From positions 84,961 to 148,960 of IMG/VR virus record IMGVR_UViG_3300049216_000317: a stretch of DNA of 64,000 bases; one strand, written 5' to 3'. Of the stretch, positions 44,636 to 58,236 are shown piece by piece. Each line of letters begins with the position of its first letter. Position 1 is the stretch's first letter. The notes under the pieces are model-generated. The model made no database searches. It was given only the letters and a program-made list of their open reading frames with translations, and had not been told where the DNA came from. The stretch comes from a virus. Its lineage: Duplodnaviria; Heunggongvirae; Uroviricota; Caudoviricetes. The position numbers and the translations under genes are program-made.

Positions 44636-44723
44636 AGAAGGTTGGGTGAGTGGTTGAAACCACCAGTCTTGAAAACTGGCGAACCGCAAGGTTCCGTGGG
44701 TTCGAATCCCACACCTTCTGCCA
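44636..44723 (+). tRNA. tRNA-Ser(TGA)
   Basis: AGAAGGT/ACCTTCT acceptor, CT-TGA-AA loop, long variable arm, encoded CCA. Confidence 0.95.
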
Positions 44724-44771
44724 ATTGATTGATACAAACTAATCTTAAAGTATCAGTTAATTGTAGTTTGT

Positions 44772-44847
44772 TGCGGGGTAGAGCAGTTGGTAGCTCGCTT
44801 GGCTCATAACCAAGAGGTCGCCGGTTCAAGTCCGGCCCCCGCTACCA
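44772..44847 (+). tRNA. tRNA-Met(CAT), initiator-like
   Basis: CT-CAT-AA loop, 1:72 mismatch, A11-T24, CCA. Confidence 0.9.
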
Positions 44848-44854
44848 GTTTTCT

Positions 44855-44930
44855 GGGGGTGTAGCTCAGTTGGGAGAGCGCCAGCTTTGCAAGCTGGATG
44901 TCGCAGGTTCGATCCCTGTCACCTCCACCA
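44855..44930 (+). tRNA. tRNA-Ala(TGC)
   Basis: G3:T70 pair, TT-TGC-AA loop, CCA. Confidence 0.95.
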
Positions 44931-44954
44931 CTTTTGTTCTTTGAAATTAGATTT

Positions 44955-45029
44955 TCGCGGGTAGATCAAAGTAGATCGCGGCACCATTACATAGCCGAGA
45001 TGAAGAGTAGCGTCCTTCCCCGCGAACCA
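44955..45029 (+). ncRNA. non-canonical tRNA-like RNA
   Basis: TCGCGGG/CCCGCGA acceptor plus A-CCA; GATC/GATC D stem; CGGC/GCCG closing an 11-nt loop; GAAG/CTTC T stem with non-TTC loop. Confidence 0.8.
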
Positions 45030-45032
45030 TTT

Positions 45033-45122
45033 TTCTCGATAAGGGCGCAAGCCCGCGTGAAGCCTTATGCTCGATGCCCGTATCGCTGCATAAGGATAAA
45101 GAGAAGCCAGAAACGGGCATTG
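45033..45122 (+). ncRNA. structured RNA candidate (multistem plus pseudoknot)
   Basis: TTCTC/GAGAA; GGGC-GCAA-GCCC; CCTTATGC/GCATAAGG; loop ATGCCCGT complementary to downstream ACGGGCAT. Confidence 0.6.
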
Positions 45123-45123
45123 T

Positions 45124-45197
45124 TGCGCTTTAGCCAAGCGGTAAGGCACCAGATTTTGATTCTGGCATCCCTGGTTCGATCCCAGGAAGCGCATCCA
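45124..45197 (+). tRNA. tRNA-Gln(TTG)
   Basis: T1-A72, TT-TTG-AT loop, CCA. Confidence 0.92.
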
Positions 45198-45210
45198 TTT
45201 TAGTTTTTGT

Positions 45211-45296
45211 GTAAGCGTGGGTGAGTGGCTAAAACCACCAGACTGTAAATCTGGGCTCTTCGGGGTTCGCAAGTTCAAATCTTGCCGCTTACACCA
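45211..45296 (+). tRNA. tRNA-Tyr(GTA)
   Basis: CT-GTA-AA loop, long variable arm, CCA. Confidence 0.95.
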
Positions 45297-45312
45297 TTTG
45301 ATTTTGTTTTGT

Positions 45313-45388
45313 GCGCATGTAACTCAGCTGGTAGAGTACCTGACTTCCACTCAGGATGCCGCAGGTTCGAGCCCTGTCATGCGCTCCA
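45313..45388 (+). tRNA. tRNA-Gly(TCC)
   Basis: CT-TCC-AC loop, T73, CCA. Confidence 0.95.
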
Positions 45389-45403
45389 GTTTTTGTGTTT
45401 TGT

Positions 45404-45480
45404 CTAAGTATAGCTCAGTTTGGTAGAGCGCTTGGTTTGGGACCAAGAGGTCGTAGGTTCAAATCCTGCTACTTAGACCA
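45404..45480 (+). tRNA. tRNA-Pro(TGG)
   Basis: C1-G72, A73, TT-TGG-GA loop, CCA. Confidence 0.95.
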
Positions 45481-45493
45481 TTTTTGTTTTTGT

Positions 45494-45568
45494 TCGGCAG
45501 TAGCTCAGAGGTAGAGCTCACGACTGTTAATCGTGTGGTCGCATGTTCGATCCATGCCTGCCGAGCCA
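45494..45568 (+). tRNA. tRNA-Asn(GTT)
   Basis: T1-A72, G73, CT-GTT-AA loop, CCA. Confidence 0.95.
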
Positions 45569-45609: not shown

Positions 45610-46242
45610 ATGAATAATCTTCTTCTTCAGCTTTTCCTCATAGTACAAAATCGTTCAGCCAATACCTGGCTTGTCGGCGGATGCGTGCGCGATCTTATTC
45701 TTGGCATGGCACCGAAGGATTATGACATCGTCACTGACGCCAATATCGAAGAATTAAAAGAAGAATTCTTGGCCAATGGATGGGCCGTCAATGCTGTTGG
45801 CGAGAACTTCCTGGTCTATGCCGTCTCCAAAGAACACCAGCAATTTGAAATTGCCAATTTCCGCAAAGAATATGGGTTTACAGATGGGCGACGCCCCGAT
45901 CACGTAGAGATTGGAACCCTAGAGGAAGATGCCCAGCGCCGGGATTTCACGGTGAATTCAATTTATTGGAATCCAATTACCAACGAGTACAAAGATCCAA
46001 ATAATGGCAAGAAGGATCTCCAAAACAAGGTGCTGCGCTTTATTGGAAAGCCCAAAGACCGCATCAAGGAAGACTACTTACGCGTCTTCCGATTCTATCG
46101 TTTTTTAAGCAAATTTAAGAAAATCGGCATGGAGGCTGAACCCCGCTCCCTTTCAGCTTGCCGCGAAATGTTTCGCGAAGCCTATGGGAAAACCAATCCG
46201 GAGCGGGTTCGTATGGAAATCGAAAGAATGAGCCTTACTTAA
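45610..46242 (+). CDS. class II tRNA nucleotidyltransferase (CCA-adding family), head/neck domains only
   Basis: GGCVRDL...DYD (motif A), RRDFTVN (motif B), EDYLR (motif D); only 210 aa. Confidence 0.88.
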   Translation: MNNLLLQLFLIVQNRSANTWLVGGCVRDLILGMAPKDYDIVTDANIEELKEEFLANGWAVNAVGENFLVYAVSKEHQQFEIANFRKEYGFTDGRRPDHVEIGTLEEDAQRRDFTVNSIYWNPITNEYKDPNNGKKDLQNKVLRFIGKPKDRIKEDYLRVFRFYRFLSKFKKIGMEAEPRSLSACREMFREAYGKTNPERVRMEIERMSLT

Positions 46243-57759: not shown

Positions 57760-57837
57760 TGGCGGAATTGGTGGGATTCGAACCCACGATCCCCTGCTCG
57801 ACAGGCAGGCGCATTAGGCCAACTATGCTACAACTCC
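57760..57837 (-). tRNA. tRNA-Asp(GTC)
   Basis: GGAGTTG/CAATTCC acceptor, G73, CT-GTC-GA loop, CCA. Confidence 0.93.
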
Positions 57838-57838
57838 A

Positions 57839-58236
57839 TGGTGGACCTGGGGAGAATCGAACTCCCGTCCGCAAAAGCCTCCACTAAAGATCTACGTGCG
57901 TAGCGTGTTTAAATTCCCGCCGGACGGGGACGTTGGCTTGCGCTAACATCCTCCACCAAGTTTTTACGAGTAACTCTCTCGCGACGTTTTACCCTCCGTC
58001 GGAGGTGGCCGTCTTTACAGCGCGAGGCCCTCTGTTTTTTGCCCTTCCTTGGTAACAAGGTTTGGAAGGACGTACCCCGCCTTTGGGTTTTAAGGCCCGC
58101 AGGAAACCACAGCGGTTAGGCTGCGGCTTGTTCGAAATCAGCGTCGATTACGCTTTTGCATCTTTTTAAACCGGCCTGATGCTCCGGTACACGCACTCTA
58201 GATTTGGATCTTCCACGTCGAAACCATGTCAGGCCC
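57839..58236 (-). ncRNA. ssrA: tmRNA
   Basis: 5' GGGCCTGACATGGTTTCGAC; 3' GGGAGTTCGATTCTCCCCAGGTCCACCA; G3:T70; tag ORF GAC GCT GAT TTC GAA CAA GCC GCA GCC TAA at 58145-58116. Confidence 0.92.

Follow-up and report, generated by a model that had tools for sequence, protein, structure and literature searches.

The window, the whole stretch of 64,000 nucleotides that was analysed, is taken from a virus record of 164,531 bp that is complete and carries direct terminal repeats. The record encodes a tail sheath, a major capsid protein, a portal, a terminase and RtcB and therefore belongs to a myovirus. The capsid protein is ∼80% identical to those of many uncultured relatives, and the nearest cultured phage by this protein is Myxococcus phage Mx1 (52%). 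Some relatives of the integrase are labelled Bdellovibrionales.

Eight tRNA genes are arrayed on the plus strand (44636-45568), followed by a short gene of the CCA-adding family. The interval between tRNA-Ala and tRNA-Gln is filled by an unannotated tRNA-shaped RNA (44955-45029), referred to below as the upstream mimic, and by a 94-nt spacer that holds the element described here. Directly after most CCA ends of the array lies a U-rich tract, and TTGT precedes 6 of the 8 tRNA genes checked; all five bases after the CCA of the upstream mimic are T. The preliminary description, which was made from the letters of the window, had called the other spacers short T-rich linkers. U-rich tracts are indeed common after CCA, but the Ser-Met spacer is 48 nt long. 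The boundaries of the candidate RNA were set from these spacer motifs, and its parts are as follows.

44955-45029, plus strand: upstream neighbour, a non-canonical tRNA-shaped RNA ending in ACCA (folding z-score -2.8; missed by ARAGORN and Rfam)
45033-45123, plus strand: whole candidate RNA, between the CCA/U-tract of the upstream mimic and the point where RNase P is expected to cut before tRNA-Gln
45033-45037, plus strand: 5' half of P1, the weak closing stem (partner 45101-45105), and part of the generic post-CCA pyrimidine tract
45043-45054, plus strand: 4-bp hairpin with a GCAA (GNRA) tetraloop, present in both main folds of the isolated element (-6.7 kcal/mol)
45063-45095, plus strand: stem S1, 45063-70 with 45088-95, 8 Watson-Crick pairs and a 17-nt loop (pairing analysis)
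45074-45087, plus strand: loop strand of the pseudoknot helix S2, in which 45074-81 pairs with 45113-20, and its imperfect extension (pairing and nested ensemble)
45096-45104, plus strand: A-rich linker of 9 nt, directly 3' of S1 (sequence)
45105-45120, plus strand: 3' strand of S2, including GCCA at 45106-09 (pairing)
45120-45123, plus strand: TTGT leader motif, common to most tRNA genes of the array (array comparison)
45124-45197, plus strand: downstream neighbour, tRNA-Gln(TTG) (tRNA calls and Rfam)

The closing stem 45033-37/45101-05, the GNRA hairpin, the 8-bp stem S1 and the loop-tail helix 45072-81/45113-22 (8 Watson-Crick pairs plus G-U and C-G) had all been noticed in the preliminary description and are present as it gave them, as are the GCCA, a second ATAAGG at 45039-44 and the start of tRNA-Gln at 45124. 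Two further pairings had been missed. An inner stem (45072-75/45082-85) can form in the S1 loop, and S2 can be extended by pairing 45083-87 with 45105-11, interrupted by an A-A mismatch and a bulge of 2 nt. S1 and the extended S2 stacked on each other, with the linker crossing S1, make the standard H-type pseudoknot layout predicted by pairing; from pseudoknot geometry, the first loop is too short for the whole extended S2, so that only part of it can form at once. By analogy with SAM-II and CptI (PMC4627078), the A-rich linker would be the minor-groove loop of this pseudoknot and play an A-minor role. Within the pre-tRNA-Gln leader, the 8-bp core of S2 occupies positions -11 to -4, and further pairing can reach -2. 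The outer 2-3 pairs of the pseudoknot are partly generic, because 45120-23 is the array-wide TTGT. The element is present in a single copy and contains no repeat of 7 nt or more, no terminator and no sigma-70 promoter. An antisense open reading frame of 57 codons (44947-45120) was considered and discarded for want of support.

Crossing helices and competing folds

S1 and S2 are both perfect, free of wobble and mismatch. Two crossing perfect 8-bp helices never arose in 5,000 dinucleotide shuffles, and among 3,655 genome windows of 90 nt they were confined to one, the element itself; these odds are somewhat optimistic because the site was picked for looking paired. No second site in 7.75 Mb of fetched DNA combined a tetraloop hairpin with a stem and a pseudoknot helix of 8 bp each. 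The folding z-score of the element is only -2.2 to -2.5, and that of the real tRNA-Gln is similar (-2.2). The observation of a paired element is confirmed, with crossing helices far beyond chance, whereas its earlier interpretation finds support in part; the shuffle and genome-window counts support the earlier claim of a structured, non-random element in the tRNA array.

Several folds compete within this sequence. Without the tail, 45033-45109 forms a three-way junction with the inner stem and with GCCA overhanging (-26.4 kcal/mol). The 5-bp P1 belongs to the minimum free energy structure only in this truncated form, and its pair probability in context is ∼0.02. When the tail is included, the best nested fold keeps S2 and loses S1 (-31.1 kcal/mol), and the junction fold (-30.0 kcal/mol) lies 1.1 kcal/mol above it. 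In the nested ensemble the core of S2 has a probability of ∼0.79 and its extension of 0.6-0.7. For the knot together with the GNRA hairpin, only a rough estimate of -25 to -28.5 kcal/mol could be made; the pseudoknot may not dominate, since the nested S2 fold lacking S1 is better than this estimate. The GNRA hairpin has a probability of 0.16 when folded with the flanking genes.

Two details of the preliminary description fared less well. A helix between ATAAGG and CCTTAT, proposed there as a switch, received a probability of 0.0 in the nested ensemble; competition does exist, but between other folds. The GCCA, likened to a tRNA 3' end, is followed by a purine-rich tail and not by the U-rich trailer of real 3' ends in the array. 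This tail pairs with the loop at -15.9 kcal/mol and so holds the most stable helix, for which reason GCCA is probably internal. The 7 nt of 45042-45048 are complementary to 45125-31 in the 5' strand of tRNA-Gln, so that the acceptor stem could meet competition; the acceptor pair probability of tRNA-Gln is only ∼0.3 in the fold of 44955-45197.

An Rfam search, one of the checks proposed along with the preliminary description, left the element unmatched: no hit reached the gathering score, and none at E up to 10 was credible. The element is accordingly uncatalogued by Rfam, and the phage RNA catalogue of Fremin 2023 (PMC10690425) may carry an entry for it. A potC match was rejected as below threshold and antisense. 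For YrlA and Y RNAs, which combine a tRNA-like D, AS and T module with a nearby Ro60 gene, RF02553 matched only real tRNAs, and the genome lacks a TROVE gene.

A candidate stable RNA and the alternatives

The element most likely represents a real pseudoknotted RNA, as yet uncatalogued, and would fall within the broad class of non-decoding RNAs that phage tRNA arrays encode. We give a probability of roughly 45% to the reading that host processing of the array releases it as a stable non-decoding RNA. The element lies on the array strand between the U-tract and TTGT motifs that also flank the tRNA genes, and may be a small non-coding RNA gene placed in a tRNA array like the tRNAs themselves. In bacterial tRNA polycistrons, RNase P cuts the 5' ends of tRNAs, and endo- and exonucleases cut after CCA. 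The element would be co-transcribed with the array, its 5' end would be freed by host processing after the CCA of the upstream mimic, and its 3' end by RNase P cleavage at tRNA-Gln. The pseudoknot, 1-3 nt from the RNase P cut, would then block 3' exonucleases and leave a stable RNA of ∼90 nt. In the most speculative step, this RNA could act in trans, its folded form serving as a ligand or decoy for a host defence protein that binds or cuts RNA.

We favour this excised RNA because the crossing helices are beyond chance and the placement between spacer motifs is gene-like, because the loop lengths and the A-rich linker fit the H-type geometry of CptI and SAM-II (PMC4627078), and because arrays of related phages hold other unannotated folded spacers. 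The reading is weakened by the failure to find a homologue, by a nested fold predicted to be more stable than the rough estimate for the knot, and by the single copy without repeats, unlike antitoxin arrays.

The T4 species 1 and 2 RNAs (rnaC and rnaD) and the small stable RNAs of T5 are non-decoding RNAs of unknown function encoded in tRNA clusters, and those of T4 are a precedent for stable RNAs cut from such a cluster. Like them, the element sits inside a phage tRNA cluster and is positioned for release by host tRNA processing. The T4 and T5 RNAs keep a tRNA-like acceptor/T-arm half with a CCA end, whereas the element has no T-arm and probably runs 10-14 nt past its CCA into the pseudoknot. 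Phage tRNA arrays offer cheap mass production of small RNAs, and their few known non-tRNA products are unexplained; a product that is pseudoknotted and not tRNA-shaped would widen the class of non-decoding array RNAs. A topological parallel exists in the flaviviral class 1 xrRNA, a three-way junction in which the 3' tail pairs with the third loop. The element in the fold of the preliminary description has a matching topology; it differs in its much longer junction strands (5, 8 and 5 nt) and weak P1, and no Rfam match links the two.

Pseudoknot antitoxins and phage pseudo-ToxI are the analogues that suggest the decoy role (PMC4627078; PMC3475682). The CptI-type antitoxin is an H-type pseudoknot that has single-stranded flanks and places an A-rich loop in the minor groove (PMC4627078), a layout that the element would share. 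Phages can use type III antitoxin-like RNAs as decoys, and escape of a phage from ToxIN by means of such an RNA has been published (PMC3475682). The tandem pseudoknot repeats upstream of a toxin gene that mark type III antitoxins were not found; unlike CptI and ToxI, the element is a lone copy about twice the length of the 45-nt CptI unit, has no toxin gene beside it and gives no Rfam match.

A rather unlikely alternative, though the main one among the rivals, is a cis-acting switch on the maturation of tRNA-Gln. S2 would mask the 5' leader needed by RNase P, the alternative fold (P1, S1 and the inner stem) would free it, and the balance could be shifted by a metabolite or protein that binds the SAM-II-like triplex region. 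The position of the S2 core over the leader and the ∼1 kcal/mol between the two folds with tail are what such a switch would use. To our knowledge, no natural riboswitch acts on a tRNA leader, and we know of leader-masking control of RNase P only from engineered constructs. In those, engineered riboswitches control E. coli RNase P by leader masking (PMC8925977).

The resemblance to SAM-II was examined against 26 real SAM-II sequences, with which the words and spacings of the element line up. As in SAM-II and SAM-V, an H-type pseudoknot with an A-rich minor-groove loop is possible by pairing, which is a prediction only; a long loop has its 3' half paired with a purine-rich tail, UAAA comes right after stem 1, and CCG and YGC words, a GC pair and an A-A mismatch stand in matching places. 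Unlike them, the element has an extra 5' GNRA hairpin and is followed by tRNA-Gln instead of a ribosome-binding site and gene. On the SAM-II profile it falls in the top 0.05-0.13% of background hairpins, a likeness noticed only after many families had been compared, and scores 8.2 bits vs 28-52 for real SAM-II. Neither RF00521 (SAM-II) nor RF01826 (SAM-V) gave a hit at the site of the element, and nhmmer likewise gave none. SAM is contacted in SAM-II by U11, U21 and U44 (PMC3303485); the contact set compared comprised U10/U44 and U11/U21-A45. At the contact positions of the element U45075 is kept, and G45076, C45084 and C45108 are changed (U11, U21 and U44 being G, C and C). The element may be built like SAM-II; membership in the family was rejected on its score below the family range and the replaced ligand contacts. 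We consider it very unlikely that RNase P maturation is gated here, through leader masking, by a natural pseudoknot that responds to a ligand or protein and might be a SAM-II-fold variant of altered specificity. If it were, tRNA-Gln gating would be a natural counterpart of the engineered RNase P riboswitches.

It is likewise unlikely that the element is a chance pairing or a decayed remnant; it would then be an insert specific to its lineage, with helices that arose by accident or are no longer under selection. This reading draws first on the homologue searches, which had been proposed as a check and found nothing in five collections or in 67 related phage records. Pattern scans gave no homologue in IMG/VR, JGI metagenomes or GTDB genomes, and BLAST gave none in cultured phages or plasmids. 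A single-sequence covariance model gave none in 151 genomes of one bacterial class and none in 73 phage records, of which 67 were capsid relatives (15 of the 67 at least 90% complete), and with filters off it gave none in six related tRNA arrays; exact patterns and a single-sequence model would miss diverged relatives. There is consequently nothing to count for covariation of the helices, and the element is a singleton, a candidate and not yet a family. The modest folding z-score, the choice of the site by eye for its pairing and the derivation of P1 and of the outer S2 pairs from generic spacer motifs point the same way. Against it, both 8-bp helices are perfect although decay would erode them, and absence in relatives at ∼80% capsid identity says little when the closest phages stand at 88-90%.

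Four look-alikes were rejected. That at locus L316 has a different fold; that at L571 (E 0.005) has no pseudoknot and is a gene leader; the spacer before tRNA-Gln at L503 (global alignment p 0.03) has different helices; and that at L561, despite an 18/19 match, is on the opposite strand and has no partner for S1. A pattern scan for the upstream mimic in IMG/VR also gave no relative, and the pattern hits inspected were unrelated.

Quite improbable is a ribozyme of an undescribed class whose self-cleavage would trim the upstream mimic at its 3' end or tRNA-Gln at its 5' end. A compact pseudoknotted phage RNA starting within 5 nt of a tRNA-type CCA end is in the position of theta ribozymes (PMC10879173), and S2 shows GUA opposite GAAAC, as in hammerhead stem III geometry. 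The preliminary description could not fit the element to hammerhead, HDV/theta, twister or pistol cores, and our searches agree. No CUGANGA occurs within one mismatch on either strand, while GAAA is present at 45110. A descriptor search of both strands gave 0 hits for the HDV/theta topology, the nested double pseudoknot P1-P2-P3 with L3 and the J4/2 cytosine being absent. Unlike theta ribozymes, which carry P3/L3 and begin at the cleavage-site G1 of P1 within 5 nt of the tRNA 3' end, the element begins in a U-tract, with five T in that place. The single marker words of twister and pistol are lacking, and covariance models of twister, twister-sister, pistol and hatchet gave no match overlapping the element at E up to 10, in line with the absence of any overlapping Rfam ribozyme. 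Both junctions carry ordinary host-processing motifs, so self-cleavage is not needed.

The least likely alternative is a minimal tRNA mimic, 45033-45109, ending in GCCA and handled by CCA-adding or charging enzymes: this segment does overhang GCCA when folded alone, adjoins the upstream mimic and lies near the CCA-enzyme gene, but it has a 5-bp closing stem vs the 7-bp acceptor, no T-loop, no ARAGORN call even at relaxed score, no U-tract after CCA unlike most array genes and a tail given over to the stablest helix, and the phage genome has no Ro60/TROVE gene.

Folded spacers in related phages and neighbouring genes

Other spacers in the tRNA arrays of related phages are also folded. A spacer of ∼100 nt with two hairpins is found in L481 (between tRNA-Ser(GCT) and tRNA-Trp, 2055-2161) and in L498 (minus strand, between tRNA-Pro and tRNA-Arg(TCT)). 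Its hairpin loops are complementary in both copies though their sequences differ (GACT/AGTC vs GATT/AATC), and it is likely a kissing-loop RNA family, unrelated to the element. The L503 spacer, 80 nt on the minus strand before tRNA-Gln(TTG), has a hairpin, TTAAA and a possible small pseudoknot, and is not alignable to the element. A short GC-rich hairpin lies 25 nt upstream of tRNA-Pro(TGG) in L503, L501, L478 and L498, directly preceded in two of the four by ATG and a word resembling Shine-Dalgarno. In L500, L478, L501 and L505, several tRNA-shaped spacers escaped ARAGORN, some with altered T-loops or without an anticodon arm.

The CCA-family enzyme behind the array (window 45610-46242), short at ∼207 aa, belongs to a large phage family of ∼700 relatives. 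In other phages (loci L006, L007, L009, L011 and L395) its gene stands among RlaP, PNKP and RNA ligase genes. In neighbour-gene walks, none of the relatives of this enzyme or of the integrase adjoined a tRNA array; the place of the gene behind the array is thus not conserved. A tmRNA with the tag DADFEQAAA is encoded on the minus strand of the window (57760-58236), one base from tRNA-Asp; no tmRNA was found in 20 fetched regions of related phages. Outside the window (L398-L400), the same phage genome encodes RtcB, nicotinamide phosphoribosyltransferase and GroEL.
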